Assembly (NCBI GenBank): GCA_951406725.2
Contig: OX597819.1
Location: 65,844,001-65,908,000 of the forward strand
Direction of reading: 5' to 3'
Source: Octopus vulgaris
Taxonomy: Eukaryota
Length of the DNA: 64,000 nt
Part shown: positions 9,991-62,452 of the stretch, one piece after another
Layout of the letters: the number at the start of each line of letters is the position of its first letter
Numbering within the stretch: position 1 is the first letter of the stretch
The notes under the pieces: model-generated
Database searches by the model: none
Told to the model about the DNA's origin: nothing
Seen by the model: the letters and a program-made list of their open reading frames with translations, nothing else
Position numbers and translations under genes: made by a program

Positions 9991-10248
9991 CCATATAGCG
10001 TAGTGGTTAAGAGCGCGGGCTACTAATCCCAAGATTCCAAGTTCGATTCCAGGTAGCGACCTGAATAATAATAATAAGAAGAAGAAGAATAACAACAACA
10101 ACATCGAAAAATACCTTAGGTATGAGAACCCTGGTTCGAAATTTCCCCAAGACACCTCAAGAAGGCTGGAGGGTATATCAGCCGAAACGTTGTGTTAACA
10201 ACAAACAAAATGAGGACAAATATCCGTCGAATGTAGATAATGTAAATA
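9991..10248 (+). mobile_element. SINE family E: tRNA-like head + (AAT)n spacer + hammerhead-like 3' module
   Basis: A-box TAGCGTAGTGG, B-box GTTCGATTCC, (AAT/AAG)n, then GACAC-CTCAAGA-A-GGCTG..CAGCC-GAAACGTT-GTGTT; homologs at 24251 and 42275. Confidence 0.85.
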
Positions 10249-10329
10249 AATAACCAAATGTTTAGTAAAGTGCAATAACAGTATTGCAGTATCGACCAGG
10301 CCATCACATACAGCTCTTATACACCGCTG

Positions 10330-15542: not shown

Positions 15543-15886
15543 AGTTAGTTAGTTAGTTAATTTGGCTCAAAAGCAAATAGCAAGGCCATGTAGGGGGACA
15601 TGGAGTTAAGTACAGGGTGGTGTTCATGTAAAGAGTTCCGGCCACTTGAGGTCAAGGGAGACTTTGAACAAAGCGGTCGTCGGCATCTTCACCATCTCGT
15701 CTGACAGCTTGTTCCACGGATCCGCAACCCGGACGGAGAAAGCTCCTCTCCTTCGATTGAGATGAAATCGTCGCAGGTAGAGCTTTTCGGAATGACCCCG
15801 CAGCCGACGCTCTGGAGCAGGAGTGAAGAACAGCTCTTTCGAGAGGTTACACTTTCCGCTTATGATGTTGTGAGCGAGAATGAAAT
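15543..15886 (-). mobile_element. CR1-clade LINE 3' fragment with (AACT)n tail
   Basis: ORF 15624-16016 contains RGHSEKL..RRGAFSVRVADPWNKL..VK....FKVSLD, the CR1 ORF2 C-terminal pattern; short 3' UTR ends in (AACT)n. Confidence 0.9.
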
Positions 15887-16282
15887 CACCACTAGTAGTA
15901 GTAGTGGCGGTAGTGGTGGTAGTGGTGGTGGTGGTGGTGTTGATATTACTGGCTGTAGTGTTGATTGTGGTACCGGTAGTAGTAATGGTGGATAATCTTT
16001 TAATCAAGTCCCCCAAAATGGTGGTGAAAGGTTTCGCGGTGGCCTTGATAAAACCTCTCTTTATTTACCAATTCCGAGAGTGATTGAGAGAGGAACCCAT
16101 ACCTGAACTTTACTGATTTTTTATTGGTCGATCAGAAACAAAGTTTGACAGGGTCGGATTCGAACTCAGAGAGTGGAGAACCGGAACAGTAATAAAAATT
16201 GAGTTTCCATCGGACGATTTAACGCGCAAGCTAATTCGTTTGCAAACAATGTAGTACTTAAGGATAGTATTGATAGAGGCTT

Positions 16283-17459: not shown

Positions 17460-17665
17460 CCGGAGTAAACACATAAATGTGAAACAAGGTGGAAAAAAAG
17501 TACTCAAATACCAGTAGTAGAGTAATATGCTTTATTTAAAGCAGCAGAAAATTCAACAAAACCTGTTACTCTGAGTTTCCCGTTGCCGTTCATCGGACAG
17601 TTTTGAACGGCAACGGGAAACTCAGAGTAACAGGTTTTGTTGAATTTTCTGCTGCTTTAAATAAA

Positions 17666-17666
<1 letters not shown>
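17460..17666 (-). mobile_element. Penelope-like terminal-repeat remnant with a perfect 63-bp foldback, between (TA)n tracts
   Basis: 17530-17592 is the exact reverse complement of 17604-17666 (11-nt loop); hammerhead-like motif on minus strand at 17563-17600. Confidence 0.65.
17563..17600 (-). ncRNA. Variant minimal type I hammerhead motif
   Basis: CTGT-CCGATGA-ACG GCAA CGG-GAAA-CTC A GAG-TA-ACAG; U4C core change and weak stem II. Confidence 0.5.
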
Positions 17667-17756
<90 letters not shown>

Positions 17757-18731
17757 AGACGGAGAAATAGATAACGAAAGAAATTAAGAAAGAAGATAAA
17801 ACAAACGATTTGGAATGAAAACAAAGTTTAAAACGAGGGAAAAAAACATTATGGAAAGAATTAAAGGAGTGAAAGAAGGACTGAAGGAAAGGGAAAGTAA
17901 TAGAAAGATGAAGAATCAGAAAAAGGAAAAGCAAACGATTTTTTTCTTTTTTTTTAATAGAAGAAAGAGCACAGGAGTGAACGAACAAATAAGAATGGAA
18001 AGAATATAGTAAAGAAAGTGAGAAGAAAGAAACGAAAAAAATAAAAATCGTTAAAAAATACGACTAAAAATATATAAATAAAGGAAATAGTAAGAAAAGA
18101 ATGAGATCGTAAAAGAAGAAATAGACAAGAAATGTTGAATTTGAAGATATTGTGAAAGGAAATTGCAGCATTTAACAAAAAGAAATTTTTAAGAATGTAA
18201 AGTAATTAGGAATAATGAAAAGTCTAATTCCTCTGCAGAACCATCAGCTTCACCATCCTACCACTACTACTTGAAAAAATTACTAAAATTTACTAAAGAA
18301 ATAAAGAAGTAATTTGAATTACAAAATAAGAGTAAGCCTTGAATGTTATTAACTCAAAAGATAGATAGGTAAGATGGCAAAGAAGTTCTAGTTTTCCATA
18401 CGTCAACTAAATTTATCTTTGTACATTTACTATGTGGTTCTTTCGTGACTTAGTTCGCGAAGTACAGCGAAAAACTATGCTACGTTGACGAAACTAAAAC
18501 ACTACTGAAACTCGTATGAATGTCGTCCGCCATATAAGTGGCAATCATTTTAGACATTCATATTTAAACACGCATGCACACATACACACATACATATATA
18601 CTGCACCAATAGATACTGGAGATAGCAGTCAATAACATACGACGCTATTGTATAGATTCACTGTATATATATACTGGCAAAAATCGTTAAAGTAAGAATA
18701 TTTAATAAATGTACAACCCAGATGTAAATAA

Positions 18732-18803
18732 TCTAGGACCTAGATTTCGAACTTGCTAAATTACGTTTGTTAACGTAAATTTGATTGGTTCTCATCAGCT
18801 AGA
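18732..18803 (-). ncRNA. Type I hammerhead ribozyme, canonical core
   Basis: TCTAG-CTGATGA-GAAC[..AAATTTACGTT/AACGTAATTT..]GTTC-GAAA-TCTAGG-TC-CTAGA: stems I and II pair, GUC cleavage triplet, near-palindromic stem III. Confidence 0.85.
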
Positions 18804-24388: not shown

Positions 24389-25355
24389 TCGAAAAATACC
24401 TTAGGAATGAGAACCCAGGTTCGAAATTTCCCCAACGCACCTGATGAAGGCTGGAGGGTATATCAGCCGAAACGTTGTTAACAACAAACAAGATGAGGAC
24501 AAATATCCGTCAAATGTAAATAATGTAGCAGCATCTATTTCCGCTTTGCTTTCAAAATTCCAGTTTCGCTGAGGTCGACTTTACTTTGTATCCGTTCGAG
24601 GACGATAAAATGAATACTAGTTGAGCACTGGGATCGATATAGTCGACTATTCCCTTCCTCTAAAATTTCGGTCCTTGTGCGTATTGTAAAAAGAATTAGA
24701 ATCAACGAGCTGGCAGAATTATAAGCCCGCTGTACAAAATGCATAGCAAGGTTTTTGTGGCTCTTGACTAAAATCCCGTCGACGTCGACTTGGCCTTTTA
24801 TCCTTTCGGGGTCGATAAAATAAACAGTAGTTGAGTGCTAGGAGTTTTGGAATAGACTACTCCTACTATTGAAATTTCAGGTCTTGTGCTTTTAATAGAA
24901 ACGATTCGAAGGGACTATCAAACTGATGTTTGGAGCATGAAATAGAAATGAAATTTTGACGAACGGTTATTATTCAGTTGACTTAGCACGCCGGGCGAAA
25001 TTTTTAGCGTTATTTCGTCAGCCGATACGTTTTGAGTTCAAATTCCGCCGAGGTCGAGTTTGCCTTTCATTCTTTCGGGGTTGATAAATTAAGTACCAGT
25101 TACGCACTGGGGTCGATGTAATCGACTTAATGTCCTTGTGGGCAATAAAGAAATAAGAATCGTTACCACGCCAGGCGAAATTTTTAGCGTTATTTCGTCA
25201 GCCGAAATGTTCTGAGTTCAAATTCCACCGAGGTCAACTTTACCTTTCATCCTTTCGGGGTCGATAAATTAAGTACCAGTTAAAAAATAGGGTCGATGTA
25301 ATCGACTAACCCCTCCCCACAAATTTCAGGCTCTGTGCTTATAATAGAAACGATT
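24204..25355 (+). mobile_element. Cluster of four same-orientation SINE family C units, the first split by a SINE E insertion
   Basis: Cores GAGGTCGACTTT / CCTTTCGGGGTCGATAAA recur near 24570, 24780, 25050 and 25230. Confidence 0.88.
24251..24527 (+). mobile_element. SINE family E nested in SINE C; hammerhead core intact
   Basis: CGTAGTGGTTAAGAGCGCG head, GAGTTTGATTCC, (AAT)n, CTGATGA-A-GGCTG..CAGCC-GAAACGTT at 24441-24476; TAGCA at both junctions. Confidence 0.88.
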
Positions 25356-42406: not shown

Positions 42407-42437
<31 letters not shown>

Positions 42438-42594
42438 TAATAATAACATCGAAAAATGCCTTAGGAATGAGAACCCAGGTTCGAAATTTCCCTAAAATTC
42501 CAGATGAAGACTGGAGGGGATATCAACCGAAACATTGTGTTAACAACGAACAAGATGAAGGCAAATATCCGTCAAATGTAAATAATGTAAATAA
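42275..42594 (+). mobile_element. SINE family E, 5'-truncated, with inverted 5' duplication
   Basis: GAGTTCGCTTCCAGGCAG..CCTGAATAAT, trinucleotide spacer, CATCGAAAAATGCCTTAGGAATGAGAACCCAGGTTCGAAATTTCC, degenerate hammerhead. Confidence 0.85.
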
Positions 42595-42959: not shown

Positions 42960-43480
42960 TGAGTCAGTGTGTGTGGATAGATAGATAGATCGAGAGAAGA
43001 GATAGATAGATAGATTGAAACATACATACATACATACATACATACATACAGGCATACATACATACAGGCATACATACATACATACATACATACATACATA
43101 CATACATACATACATAGGTAGAGAGACAGCGACAGAGACAGCCAGATAGACAGACAGACAGATAGATAGATAAATAGGTAGCGACAGAAGCAGTATTAAT
43201 ACTGAAAGTAATATTTTCCACCACCTAAATGTGGATGTTATATTAGAATACAGAATACTGCGATACTTGCCAAGGGAGAACCTCTTACACCGACTTATGA
43301 TGCATATAAGCACTCGTGTTTATATCGCTAGCGGAAGATATTCCTCCGCCACTGCTGCCCCTACCACCCCTACCACCAGGTCACGTAATTTTGGCCTTCA
43401 TCAGCTATGACATAGGTGTATGCATGCTGTATATATATATATATATATACGCGAGAATGAAGCAACAAGAATGGATAGGT

Positions 43481-43566
43481 TTTTAGTACAATCGTTTCAT
43501 ACAAGGACAGGTTTTATTAAAAGTTGCAAAAATTACAGCATATAAACTCGTACTCATCAGCTAAAA
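43481..43566 (-). ncRNA. Type I hammerhead ribozyme (inverted copy, 5-nt deletion in stem II)
   Basis: TTTTAG-CTGATGA-GTAC...GTAT-GAAAC-GATT-GTA-CTAAAA on minus strand. Confidence 0.75.
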
Positions 43567-44558
43567 TACATGTGAGTTCTCTAGACATCCTAGTGGTTGA
43601 GGCTATACTCATGAAGTAATGTAGATAATTAAGTAACATAAACAGATTTCAAAAGTTCATTAAAGTTCTTTAAAGATGATGTACAGTCTTATCACAGAAT
43701 TTTAAAAAAAGTCTTAATAGCATCACAGAGAAGGTGACCCAATCCATAGTGCACATATGAATTTCCAGAGATATGATGAGGGATTACATACTCACAGAAG
43801 ACAAATTTATCCATTGTTAATTACAACGAGGTGGGTTTCAATTCCTGCTTATTAGCATTACAGAGAGGGTGAATTAATCATTTGTATAGATGCACAATTT
43901 CCAATGGTGTAGGTGTAAATTTCCAAGGAATTTCATATTCACAGGCGATAAATTTATCAATGGTTGAACACAATGAGGTAGGTATCAATTCTTGCTATAT
44001 GATTAGGTATCTGCCACATTAATCACATTACTGCTATTTACAAGAGGCTGTAGCTATTTAACTTTTAAAGGCTGAAGGGCTTACTAGAGCTGTATAGAAT
44101 AGAAAAGGGAAGGGCATAGAAGAAAAGAGAGAAAATAAAGAGAGAAAATAAAAGAGGAGGGAGCAAAAAGGGGGGGAAGGGGGACTCAAAGAGAAGAGAA
44201 AAGGAAAAAGAGAATAAGAAGAAGAAAAAGAAAAAAGAGAAAAGAGAAAGAAATAGGGAAGGAAGGGAAAAAAAGAAAAAGAAGAAAAAAAGAAAAAAGA
44301 AGAAAGAAGAAAGAAAAAGAAAAAAGAGGGTTCTAGTTATACAGAAGAATTAGTAGACGACAAGTCTGGTTTTAATTTACAGGCATCTAGGAATTAGAGG
44401 AGAATATTATTCTTTGACCAGTTAAAACAGCTAATTTATTGCTGTTGAAATCAGCTATGAATTTAAAGAGAATCTAAAGAGATAACACAGTTAGGGGTTT
44501 CAGGGTCAGATGCTAAAATTACCAGAAAATACATTAGGGAAAACTAGGTATAATCTTA

Positions 44559-44649
44559 TTTTAGCTGATGAGTACGGGACGAGTTTATATGCTGTAATTT
44601 TTGCAACTTTTAATAAAACCTGTCCTTGTATGAAACGATTGTACTAAAA
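44559..44649 (+). ncRNA. Type I hammerhead ribozyme, canonical core, long stem II
   Basis: TTTTAG-CTGATGA-GTACGGGAC...GTCCTTGTAT-GAAAC-GATT-GTA-CTAAAA; 6-bp stem I; GUA triplet ending at 44643. Confidence 0.85.
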
Positions 44650-44796
44650 ACCTATCCATTCTTGTTGCTTCATTCTCGCTTATAATCACCCCACATTACT
44701 GTATTGTTAAATCAGTATAGTTTTTTTTGGTGCATCTAAGTTAGGTACCATATTCAAGTAAATTCATTTAAATTAACTTGAATCTTTATTGCTTTT

Positions 44797-44861
<65 letters not shown>

Positions 44862-48102: not shown

Positions 48103-49190
48103 AAGCCCAGCAAAAGTCACCAGTGGTGTCCCTCGGGAGATTGTTTGGGCCCGCTTCTCTTTATAGTCTGTATAAACGATCTTTCCACTGAAAAACAGCA
48201 AAGTGAAAATATACACTGATGACTACAAGCTCCATAAAATTATCAATGGAGAAGACTGGACTGAACTCCAGTCTGATCTACACGCTGTGAGTCAATGGGA
48301 AAACAAAAACAAAATACAGGTAAATGAGGGACAATTTGAGCTGATGCATTTTGGAAAAAAGACTATTCTAAAACAGCCATACTCTCTTCCTTCAGGGGAA
48401 CCACACGCAACATTTGATAATATCAGAGACTTGGGAGTAATTGTTCAAAATAACCTCAGCTGGAGTGCACACATCAACAATAAGGTTGATATAACTCGTA
48501 GGATGAGCTCCTGGATCATTACAACCTTCCGGTCCAGAGAATAAGCTGTCATCATTCTTCTTTTCTTCTCCTTTGTACTGCCACACCTCGAATACTGCTT
48601 CTCCCCATACAAAACAAAACATTTCAGAAATCGAATCACCCAGAGGACATTTATTAAAAGAATCAAGAGCATGACTGATCTCGATTATTAGGACCGCCTT
48701 AAAGCATTGAAACTTTATTCTCTCCAATGCCGCCGTGAGCGATACAGTATTTGCACGATGTGGATAATATACCACCAGCATTGCCCAAATGACCTCAATA
48801 TTAGTTTCAACATTCATCCAAGACTAGGACCACGGGCCATACACCCCTTATCCAATACAAGATCACAGCACATAAAAACACTGCAACACAATTTCTTTTC
48901 CTCAACAGGTCCTCTCTCATTTAACATTGTCCCGAAACAGATCAAAGAGTTAAAGGATTCCGTCACATTTATATGGAATCTGAACAAATTTCTTCAGGGA
49001 ATACCAGAATATGCTACCTATACCTGGATAAAACTCGCTCAATAAGAGCTCCTTACTCGAATGGACTATGATACCACAAAACTTGCCCTAAAATGATTTA
49101 CCTCATCCTATCCGGTGGTACTATTAAGTTAGACATGGCCAGGACCAATCTTTGGTCGAAACGTATCTCAGTTATCTAATGTATCTAAGC
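48103..49190 (+). mobile_element. CR1/L2-like LINE, 5'-truncated, decayed reverse transcriptase
   Basis: Frameshifted segments KVTSGVP, LGPLLFIVCINDL, KIYTDDYKL (YADD motif), DLGVIVQNNLSWSAHI, VLPHLEYC, RLKALKLYSLQCRRERY; 3' stem-loop. Confidence 0.93.
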
Positions 49191-56565: not shown

Positions 56566-57070
56566 TAGATAAAACTTAGATATGTTTCGACCAAAGATTG
56601 GTCCAGGCCATGTCTAACTTAATAGCACCACATGATAGGATTATCTACATCCTTTTAAAGTCAAGTTTTGTGCTGTTATGGTCCGTTCAAGTAGTGAGTT
56701 CTTGTTGAGTGAGCTGTATCCAGATATGGGTGTCTTATCTGGTATTCCTTGAAGAAATTTGTTCAGACTCCGTTTAAAGGTGATTAGATTCTTTTCCTCT
56801 TTGATCAGTTTTGGGACAATGTTAAACAGGGCAGGGCCTGTTGAAGACAAGACATTGCGTCGCAGTGTACCTATAGGTGGTGATCCTAAATTGGGCAGGG
56901 GACGTATGGCCCATGGTACCAGCCTTGAATTAACCTTCAAACTAATATTCAGGTCGTTTGAGCAATGCTGGCGGTATATTCTCCACATTGTGCAAATGTA
57001 GTAGAGCTCACGGCGGCGCTGGTGGGAGTAGAGTTTCTAGGCTTTAAGGCGGTACCAGTAATCAAGATCA
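56566..57070 (-). mobile_element. CR1/L2-like LINE 3' fragment, same family as 48103-49190
   Basis: ORF 56641-56988 (MWRIYRQHCSNDLNISLKV..SSTGPALFNIVPK..LNKFLQGIP) is homologous to ORF 48707-49045; shared 3' end. Confidence 0.93.
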
Positions 57071-57960: not shown

Positions 57961-59047
57961 TGTTTCTTTATTAGCCACACAGGGCTGCACACAGATAGAA
58001 CAAATTACAAGGTAGAGCTTTTCTTTTGAAGGTTTAAAAAAAAAAAAAAAAAAAAGGAATGGGGAGTTTCGATCAAAAGGGATCGTAAAAGGAGAGAAAG
58101 AGGACAAAAAATAGGGGGGTTAAAAAAAAGGGGGAGAGGAAAAAAAATTGATCAATAGGGATCGTTATCACAGAAATGTCAAAATGAAGTGTAAGGGGGA
58201 GGACAGGTGAGGTTTACCCGTGGAAAGAAAAGCCTACGGAAAAGACCACGGTAACCTCGGTCAATGAAGTCACATTTTATATTTCTTTTTTTTTTTTTTT
58301 TTTGCAAATAAGCAACTCTCTGTTTTCGATTTCTGGGTTCATAGGACTATGCTCAAGGTGGCTTCGTCATTCATACGTGCCATTCTTGCTACATTCGCCC
58401 ATCTTTTTTTAAAACATTCGCTAGACAAAACTTGCCTCTCTACTCTCACTTTCCTTTTCAAGTGGTACTTGAAGAAGTTGATGAGAGATTGACCAGAGAG
58501 GAAAGTGTTTGTCTCCAATCCTTTCAGACGCGTCCACCAGATACATTCTTTGGCCATAGCCACAAGGATGATGAAAATAGCTCTTCCTTCCCGTTTGAAG
58601 GAAGGAGGCGTGACAATATTGACGATAGACTCAGCTGATAAACCGACTCGTCCCACACGTGACAGCAGTTGTTCGACATAAGCCCACAGGTCGGAAATTG
58701 TTGGACACTGAACGAGTGCGTGCAGAACGGTTTCGTCGCTCTGACCGCATCTCGGGCAGGTCGGCCCCGTGTTTCTCGAGCCGTGTCTGTAGAGCTTATC
58801 CCGAACGGGTAGCGCTTCTCGGTAGCACTGCCAGGCCAGGGATCTCTGGAAGTTGTCCATGGGCCCTGGCCCGAAAGTCGTCCTGAACAGGCGGGTCAGG
58901 TACTCCTCGTCGACGTCCAGGTTCGCCCCGAGCTCGTCGTCGTACCTCCCCTCCACTAAACCCCTATAGAATGCTTTGGTTGTGTTGAAGTCACTTAAGG
59001 TCGACCCAGGACGGCAGAGTTGCTTGAGAGCAACGCGACACTCGCGG

Positions 59048-59048
<1 letters not shown>
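57961..59048 (-). mobile_element. Tx1/L1-clade LINE, 5'-truncated, open ORF2 C-terminus with zf-RVT zinc finger, inserted in (GATA)n
   Basis: 58339-59048 reads LAWQCYREALPVRDKL..CPRCGQSDETVLHALVQCP..LW..AKECIWWTR without stops; 3' UTR ends AATAAAGAAAC; (GATA)n on both sides. Confidence 0.92.
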
Positions 59049-59131
<83 letters not shown>

Positions 59132-59406
59132 GAGATAGAAACATACATACATGCATACATAATGCATACATACATATGCATATAGATATGTATATGTATA
59201 TATATATATATGCATGTATATGTATAGATATAGGTAAACTTATACACATGCACATATATATAGGTATCTGAATATTTGTTTAATTGTACATACATAGATA
59301 AATACAAAGGAATAAAGATATACGCACATGCACACGAAGGCACACATGTATACATTTTTATATGTTATTATGTGTAGAGGCACACACACACACACTCACA
59401 CACATA

Positions 59407-61518: not shown

Positions 61519-61753
61519 TTTCTTCATTGGCCACACAGGGCTTAATACAGAGGGGACAAATACAAATGTAGAGCTTTTCTTTTCGAAGATGGAAAAAGAA
61601 AAAGGAACAAAAAAAGAAACTAATGTAAAATTCCGATCAAAAGGGATCGTGTATCACACAAACAAAGATTAGGTTCATCCGTGGAAGAAAAGCCTACAGA
61701 AAAGACCACGGTAACCTCAGTCAGGGAGGAAATAAACACGAGAGCAAAGTGCT

Positions 61754-61830
<77 letters not shown>

Positions 61831-62236
61831 ACGATTTACAAGATCGTGCTCAAAGTGGTTTCGTCACTCGCACGCACCAGCTTTGCTACATTCACCCACC
61901 TTTTTTTGGAACTTTCGCGAGACAAAGCCTGCCTTTCCATTCTCACCTTCCTTTTACAGTGGTACTTGAAAAAGTTGATGAGCGATTGGCCAGAGAGGTA
62001 AGTGTTTCTCTCTTATCCTTTCGCTCGGGTCCACCACACACGTCTTTCACCATGGCCACCAGTACGATGAATACTGCCTTGCCTTCCCGGTTGAGGGAAG
62101 GGGGCGGAGCAATTTTCCGGATAGACTCGGCCGACAGGCGAACTCGTCCTGCACGTGACAGCAGCCGTTCGGCATAAGCCCACAGGTCTGTAATGGTTGG
62201 ACACTGCACGAATGCGTGCAGAACGGTTTCGTCGCT
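61519..62236 (-). mobile_element. Second Tx1/L1-clade LINE fragment of the same family
   Basis: SDETVLHAFVQCPTITDLWAYAERLLSRAGRVRLSAESI; shared UTR blocks GAAAAGACCACGGTAACCTC and GCCACACAGGGCT; (CT)n at 61753-61826. Confidence 0.92.
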
Positions 62237-62452
62237 AGATAGATATAATATCCTTACGTATTTCACATCCATTTTATTCCTCCACTTCATTCTGTATTTT
62301 ATATCTTTTCCATAATAACTATTAAACATTTTCTTGCACCGTCTCTAACGAAGATATATATAAAATATCCCAGAAACAGCTGTAAGACCTCTTTATAAAT
62401 GTTCTAGAAACTATTCCCAGCCTTGGACTTTTTATCTCATTCTGTTCGTTCT

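Follow-up and report, generated by a model that had tools for sequence, protein, structure and literature searches.

The window analysed here, the whole stretch of 64,000 nucleotides (64 kb) from Octopus vulgaris, is microsatellite-rich animal DNA in which positions 43451-44798 hold a non-coding unit set between two runs of (TA)n. Its parts are given below with the evidence for each in brackets; X1, X2 and X6 denote public sequencing runs.

43430-43449, no strand: (TA)10, left half of the microsatellite target (sequence)
43451-44559, minus strand: main copy, 5'-truncated, with its 3' end at 43451 (short, tail-less) and no ORF (depth gradient; family-spanned junction at 43569)
43481-43566, minus strand: type I hammerhead of the main copy, lacking 5 bases of helix II; C3 at 43560, H17 at 43487 (motif and fold)
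43713-43996, no strand: diverged tandem pair in the family body, 43713-43849 and 43848-43996, with no coding or folding signal (alignment)
44096-44330, minus strand: 235-bp tract, purine-rich on the plus strand and hence rich in pyrimidines when read in the element sense (base count)
44331-44559, minus strand: 5'-most retained piece of the main copy, also multi-copy (X6 contig depth)
44557-44559, no strand: inversion joint, 3-base microhomology common to the body and the inverted copy (start of arm identity; loose ends)
44557-44798, plus strand: inverted 5'-truncated copy of 242 bp, running to the long 3' end (alignment; contigs)
44559-44649, plus strand: intact type I hammerhead (core motif, full descriptor and fold)
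44680-44798, plus strand: 119-bp tail, at the right end only, with predicted hairpins at 44678-44741 and 44752-44783 (shuffle z; joints)
44799-44827, no strand: (TA)14.5, right half of the target, followed by (TG)n (sequence)

Aligned with each other, the two arms of the inverted repeat (43451-43568 and 44557-44679) agree at 118 of 118 bases, the left one having a gap of 5 bases (BLAST of arm against arm within the window, E 7e-53), and a repeat finder could extend them by 5 bases with one mismatch. The lack of substitutions between them points to a young insertion. The right arm sits 119 bp inside the element end, so the two hammerhead repeats do not bound the unit in a symmetric way, as a preliminary description of this DNA had it; that description's other landmarks, namely (TA)n at both ends, a diverged tandem pair of about 140 bp, a purine tract of about 240 bp and the absence of ORFs, are all borne out. 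No target-site duplication is readable within the (TA)n, and no second copy of the 3' end on the same strand (a direct pLTR or partial tandem) occurs in the window. A direct pLTR is not a feature of every insertion of Penelope-like elements (PLEs), several of the consensus entries compiled by Craig et al. stating 'no pLTR' (PMC8557442).

Between 43569 and 44556 there is no ORF: each of the six frames holds 18-28 stops, the longest Met-started frame has 40 codons, and Pfam searches with 12 read-through frames returned nothing below E 0.1. With neither an RT nor a GIY-YIG ORF at the locus, and no direct pLTR, the link to Penelope enzymes is purely one of anatomy. The locus works like a PLE insertion and is not a coding PLE; an ORF may lie upstream of the truncation point. 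The halves of the tandem pair match at 68.5% over 149 columns (E 4e-17), lie in a region of high depth in X1, X6 and X2, and contain no hammerhead core. Their offsets of 135 and 147 are multiples of 3, and in two frames 6 of 13 changed codons are synonymous; a coding origin was rejected on a synonymous-bias control (p 0.12), the blank Pfam result and an 11-base insertion in other copies. Also rejected were a tRNA-derived origin (ARAGORN, 0 genes), a structured RNA (fold z +0.32) and a lone phmmer match (P0001, a bacterial type IX secretion repeat protein; E 1.3e-4, 25% identity), which is put down to chance periodicity.

Further along, 224 of the 235 bases of the purine tract are purines. The tail region (44640-44798) folds better than its shuffles (z -3.61; 0 of 200 as good), its two predicted hairpins having z of -3.36 and -3.28. 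The short 3' end falls at the foot of the first hairpin, beside an AC-rich strand, with TATA directly past it. A scan for bacterial promoters and terminators stayed at chance level and is not relevant here.

Elsewhere in the window, a non-LTR retrotransposon has left two 3'-end remnants, at 58339-59364 and about 61600-62350 (both minus strand), which match each other at 80% over 391 bp and include a zinc-binding RT-associated domain (PF13966 in relatives); the one named relative among nine matches of the frame 58342-58980 (minus strand) is an Argonauta hians protein with 60% identity. Decayed frames at 48176-49045 (plus strand), 56641-57036 and 15624-16064 (both minus strand) resemble, by eye, what is presumably the 3' part of another LINE reverse transcriptase. 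At 17525-17671, a (TA)n run is adjoined by a 93% self-complementary palindrome of about 144 bp.

A dispersed family in public sequencing runs

Part of the stretch is contained in 20 of 24 listed public runs, 18 of them from one organism (shares 0.45-0.69; 7 studies), and the assembly may derive from one of these runs. Contigs, which are assembled sequences and not reads, from 4 of the 24 runs were compared over 43180-44815, and those of three runs (X1, X6 and X2) cover it; run X19, from another organism (share 0.04), had no contig matching over this interval. The listings behind these results extend to 24 of 2122 pieces, 15 of 18 joints, 18 of 333 loose ends and 40 of 101 difference rows. For joints a likeness of 82 was used, and those with DNA-run sides of 20-29 letters are flagged as less safe.

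Summed contig depth, a rough measure and not a copy number, amounts to 1e4-3e5 in X1 and 2e3-6e4 in X6 over the element outside the purine tract. Single X6 contigs with 0-4 differences have depths of 1695, 2692 and 4237 against 21.6 for the exact flank contig (about 80-200 fold); the first of these, at 44376-44491, has 0 differences. We infer that the entire interior belongs to a family of at least hundreds of copies. The left flank at 43180-43345 is itself a moderately repeated element (summed depth about 1e3-6e3).

In both X1 and X6, depth declines from 43455 to 44554 and then jumps at 44555 (Spearman -0.64, p 0.007 for X1 and -0.91, p 9e-7 for X6; 16 bins, 4 in or beside the purine tract being left out). 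This fall fits the 5' truncation predicted for a minus-strand element, and depth and gradient together indicate dispersed copies with variable 5' truncation. At the left arm, X2 records 9 and 10 run from about 43460 to 43605 across the 43569 junction with 5 gap letters, family contigs of all three covering runs have inserted letters at 43547-43549, and in one X2 contig 43569 is linked with 44557 of the opposite strand. The inner junction of the left arm is therefore native to the family, and the 5-base loss is rare. On the right, family contigs follow the body to 44559 and continue with other letters (loose ends, among those listed: 5 in X1, 2 in X6 and 2 in X2). Since the contigs leave at 44559 and arm identity starts at 44557, the right junction is a joint with 3 bases of microhomology.

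Among the joints listed, other inversions occur in X1 at depth 26-35 (43598-44598, 43602-44680 and 44032-44645), and may be read as this fold-back recurring at further loci with breakpoints of their own. Tail-less ends appear in the joints 44675-44796, 44680-44798, 44670-44798 and 44681-44797 and in one loose end, again among those listed, so short and long 3' ends coexist within the family. No joint going back from the 3' end is among the 15 of 18 listed. The purine tract, in which repeats were skipped, and the right junction of the locus are bridged by no contig among the pieces listed; with the tract unbridged, 44331-44559 could belong to another repeat.

X2, presumably an RNA run, has contigs in 27 of 30 bins. 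Of its 83 difference places, 40 are A-to-G changes, compared with 4 of 47 in X1 and 7 of 54 in X6 (Fisher p 2e-6 and 2e-5), at a level C-to-T count across X2, X1 and X6 (11, 13 and 13) and with only 10 T-to-C changes in X2. The excess lies on the plus strand over 43180-44815, corresponding to transcripts antisense to the main copy. The pattern looks like A-to-I editing of family transcripts; it is a family-level signal, not specific to 43451-44798, and the DNA runs come from other animals. Editing of inverted repeats is described as a general rule (PMC5625713).

Hammerhead motifs and predicted cleavage

In both arms a stem I of 6 bp closes a motif made up of CTGATGA, GAAA and the cut triplet GTA. 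The core starts at 44565 on the plus strand and at 43560 on the minus strand; on the right, GAAA starts at 44632 and H17 falls at 44643, the cut position of the preliminary description. From the predicted cleavage point of the right hammerhead, after 44643, the distance is 36 nt to the short end and 155 nt to the long end; the contigs display no RNA ends. By descriptor, its parts on the plus strand are:

44559-44564 and 44644-44649: stem I
44565-44571: core
44572-44631: helix II
44632-44635: GAAA
44635-44642: palindromic helix III

The full descriptor (core and stems I-III) has three matches in the window, the two arms and one at 18798 on the minus strand, and none in any of 40 simulated sequences of 64 kb. 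For the bare core pattern, the 6 matches in the window are not significant, 8 of 100 shuffles having at least 6. Helix II takes up 55-60 nt, with 60 nt between the core halves on the right. An Rfam scan of the window gave 0 matches at gathering; with E raised to as much as 10 it gave 23, none of them to a hammerhead family. Monomers of the motifs fold no better than shuffles (z -0.11 and +0.79). Inverted repeats of about 120 bp with hammerhead cores are thus present as first described, but 'canonical' was too strong a word for motifs with a 60-nt helix II, no Rfam match and a shuffle-like monomer fold, of which the left one is damaged.

The left motif keeps its core and has lost 5 helix II bases, whereas the right motif is complete. 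For the left, the ribozyme fold reaches -3.7 kcal/mol against -9.2 kcal/mol for the free fold, a gap of 5.5 kcal/mol; for the right motif alone, the inactive fold is favoured by 1.9 kcal/mol (-12.5 versus -10.6). In the monomer, helix III consists of 2 pairs and a loop, and the 8 bases at 44635-44642 pair with a second copy of themselves at 8 of 8 positions. Two right-arm RNAs cofold into a double-hammerhead arrangement (-31.8 versus 2 x -12.5 kcal/mol); cofolding of the left-arm motif gave no dimer fold. The hammerhead is a feature of the family's 3' region and is predicted to cut only as a dimer, in a tandem precursor or in trans. Dimer-type hammerheads have been described for metazoan PLEs (PMC4209133; PMC6765202; PMC3088659).

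Among the difference rows listed, 6 of 9 left-arm variants mapped on the ribozyme model fall at paired positions; of those from DNA runs 4 of 5 preserve the pair, one DNA-run variant and one seen in X2 only disrupting it. Because about half of all transitions preserve pairs by chance, these variants lend the model weak support. A common variant at 44637 turns G-U into A-U and makes the palindrome perfect.

Folding of the whole element gives 118 and 117 arm-arm pairs for the two strands, with an arm duplex of -193.8 kcal/mol. In view of the missing same-strand partner, the damaged left copy and the predicted 118-bp arm-arm duplex, the hammerhead at 43451-44798 is likely silent. Cutting there is also made improbable by the pairing of the arms in a through-transcript of either strand and by the order of transcription, the antisense arm coming first.

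A second, unrelated hammerhead at 18727-18803 (minus strand) is of type I, with a long helix II (43-nt spacer), a 5-bp stem I and a palindromic helix III. It is located upstream of a short TA run, at a distance of about 55 bp; its likeness to the family studied here is confined to 18 bases, and it is likely the 3' end of another Penelope-type family. Short hammerhead-like cores also occur in other dispersed repeats, at 24441 and 40043 (plus strand) and 45956 (minus strand), with related repeats at 9999-10249 and 42409-42594; the full descriptor failed on these.

Insertion model and alternative readings

Very probably, the locus is a minus-strand 1.1-kb piece of an abundant repeat with a 242-base inverted piece of that repeat's hammerhead-bearing end set head to head against it within (TA)n, the two having likely been made in one insertion by a Penelope-like RT and endonuclease. 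The interval 43451-44798 is likely a truncated Penelope-type insertion with an inverted, hammerhead-bearing partner, a layout of a known kind, and its two outward-facing hammerheads are likely a by-product of insertion and not a two-ribozyme device. The odd two-ribozyme symmetry is in this way explained as a recognisable insertion product.

Under this model, the palindromic (TA)n target would be nicked on both its strands by the endonuclease. From one of the two ends, cDNA would be primed at the short start site (44679-equivalent), at which TATA of the element itself could base-pair with (TA)n, and would extend for 1.1 kb; from the other end, it would be primed at the long start site (44798) and extend for 242 nt; and the two cDNAs would be joined via 3 bases of microhomology. 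The resulting order would be (TA)n, the short 3' end, the 1.1-kb body running leftward, the joint, the 242-bp inverted copy with its long 3' end, and (TA)n. The two arms may thus represent two primings from both target ends, by analogy with the anole PLE: as reported for the purified enzyme, it cuts and extends both target strands and favours AT-rich DNA, RT starts at two internal sites of an AC-rich stem-loop, these sites bounding the tail, and ribozyme cleavage is not required in vitro (PMC11167929). The foot of the tail hairpin, the AC-rich strand and the TATA would be tied to start sites by the same analogy; the structured tail offers a testable pair of RT start sites. The inverted copy starts 8 bases upstream of the catalytic core, and the X1 joint 44032-44645 starts 2 bases past the predicted cut (few cases).

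Two models can be envisioned for what this mechanism moves. We incline slightly to the view that the family is non-autonomous. With nearly even chances, the 1.1-kb body is instead the long 3' untranslated region of an autonomous PLE, cut off before its ORF by the same insertion mechanism. This would agree with loose ends that carry the family upstream of 44559, with the steep gradient, which means that most copies are short, and with octopus Naiad consensus sequences that have about 1 kb after the ORF and, by eye, an internal diverged duplication (PMC8557442). Conversely, the body runs for 1.1 kb without any trace of an ORF, the Hydra-clade elements, which best fit the hammerhead format and (TA)n target, have only a few hundred bases after the ORF in their consensus sequences, and Naiads are characterized in the same source as being without canonical hammerheads (PMC8557442). 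Of the non-autonomous Penelope derivative first proposed, the Penelope part stands on the multi-copy interior, the 5' gradient, the inverted partner, the one-end tail, the (TA)n and the sense 3' hammerhead, and the non-autonomous part is plausible.

The preliminary description had also offered a retrozyme, and had a transcript of either strand of the 1.35-kb element meeting a ribozyme near its 3' end. A unit-length, two-polarity retrozyme or viroid-like element would move whole, each strand being cut by its own hammerhead to form circles, and would account for the one hammerhead per strand and for the family sequence in runs from four studies that are guessed to be RNA. It is very improbable and largely refuted: family contigs depart at 44559 and invert at other points elsewhere, the left motif is damaged by its deletion, each motif needs a same-strand partner, the arms are predicted to pair together, none of the 15 of 18 joints listed goes back from the 3' end, and head-to-tail hammerhead units are lacking.

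Two independent short insertions around unrelated host DNA would explain why the arms differ in upstream sequence and why the tract is unbridged among the pieces listed, but hardly deserve credence, the arms being substitution-free and the right junction having neither (TA)n nor a target duplication; the case of an unrelated interior without other copies, considered at the outset, is contradicted by a high-copy interior on both sides of the tract and a left junction native to the family. Equally far-fetched is a non-autonomous DNA transposon, such as a MITE, that inserts at TA and has terminal inverted repeats of 120 bp. Long inverted repeats, TA flanks, ORF absence and high copy number would suit it, as against a right repeat 119 bp inside the end, a one-sided depth gradient, variable inversion joints and, inside the repeat, a full hammerhead with pair-keeping variants.

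What the insertion reading leaves of interest is modest and lies in a hammerhead family of high copy number whose helix II is unusually long and which standard searches miss. If the A-to-G differences are editing, they would link Penelope inversions to the supply of dsRNA in cephalopods. A bolder synthesis, offered tentatively and rather unlikely to hold, would make the family an undescribed, very abundant non-autonomous octopod Penelope parasite of more than 1 kb, whose dimer hammerhead with a 60-nt helix II was missed by Rfam and published descriptors, whose two-hairpin tail sets two RT start sites and whose head-to-head pairs are a dsRNA source for cephalopod A-to-I editing, with the hammerhead at 18798 suggesting an overlooked class.

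Comparison with known systems

Motif scans for relatives gave 0 matches in metagenome, viral and prokaryote collections, and no autonomous partner sharing the 3' end was found among these collections and the supplement of Craig et al. An exact search of that supplement with three short motifs had 0 matches, although FASTA line breaks could hide one. In the literature and the supplement searched, neither the family nor an octopus hammerhead with such a long helix II was found. When Craig et al. looked for bare cores, the spacers permitted were 7-17 nt long (PMC8557442). Since 31 Penelope-like families with recent activity are reported in the O. vulgaris annotation (PMC13282606), this one may be in a catalogue already.

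Animal non-LTR retrozymes, as described, are likewise non-coding and low in GC, with a type I hammerhead and a proposed PLE origin (PMC7229834; bioRxiv 10.64898/2026.07.22.740005). By contrast, they form head-to-tail units of 150-450 bp with a hammerhead in each (PMC7229834), whereas the head-to-head element here has a length of at least 1.1 kb and is dispersed and 5'-truncated. The non-autonomous Chlamys PLEs, for example MRC1, set a precedent for ORF-less families moved by PLE enzymes; unlike the present family, they belong to green algae, carry no canonical hammerhead according to their description and have known autonomous partners (PMC8557442).

The minimal and short-helix-III hammerheads of metazoan PLEs treated by Cervera and de la Pena (2014) share type I, a 6-bp stem I, a palindromic helix III and a predicted dimer with the motif described here, whose helix II is far longer than the 4-8 bp given for theirs (PMC4209133; PMC6765202). 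The nearest long-loop cases listed are the Selaginella PLE-X1 hammerheads, with a loop 2 of about 30-35 nt and marked as deviating (PMC8557442). In Schistosoma, opposite-strand hammerhead pairs are reported 100-700 bp apart (PMC4209133).

Hydra-clade PLEs, Penelope-13_HM foremost, have in common with our element the (TA)n target, a sense type I hammerhead near the 3' end and a short palindromic helix III; their helix II is a short hairpin as opposed to 60 nt here, where at least 1 kb of non-coding body lies upstream of the motif (PMC8557442). The combination of (TA)n target and hammerhead format fits this clade, which is defined by RT/EN motifs (RWK, DKT, CxCX5C linker, no CCHH) and by tree position, but occurs in other clades too. 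Compared by eye, Hydra-1_Obim of Octopus bimaculoides differs from the element in the sequence of both hammerhead and 3' end (PMC8557442), and the octopus Naiad ends show no likeness to it.

The closest correspondence is with endonuclease-bearing (EN+) PLE insertions. Relative to those described, the locus has no ORF and no direct pLTR, and its tail of 119 bp with two predicted hairpins is 3-4 times as long as their 30-40 bp. Conversely, in the accounts of Craig et al. (2021, PMC8557442), 5' truncation is frequent, the 5' end bears a copy that is inverted and itself 5'-truncated, a tail stands at one end and the microsatellite target has no visible duplication; one of their elements, Penelope-13_HM, combines such an inverted copy with hammerheads on both strands. 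Arkhipova et al. (2013, PMC3846280) report the head-to-head layout in PLEs along with junctions of microhomology. The 5'-truncated main copy, inverted 5'-truncated partner, head-to-head junction, one-end tail and microsatellite target at 43451-44798 are all shared with such insertions.
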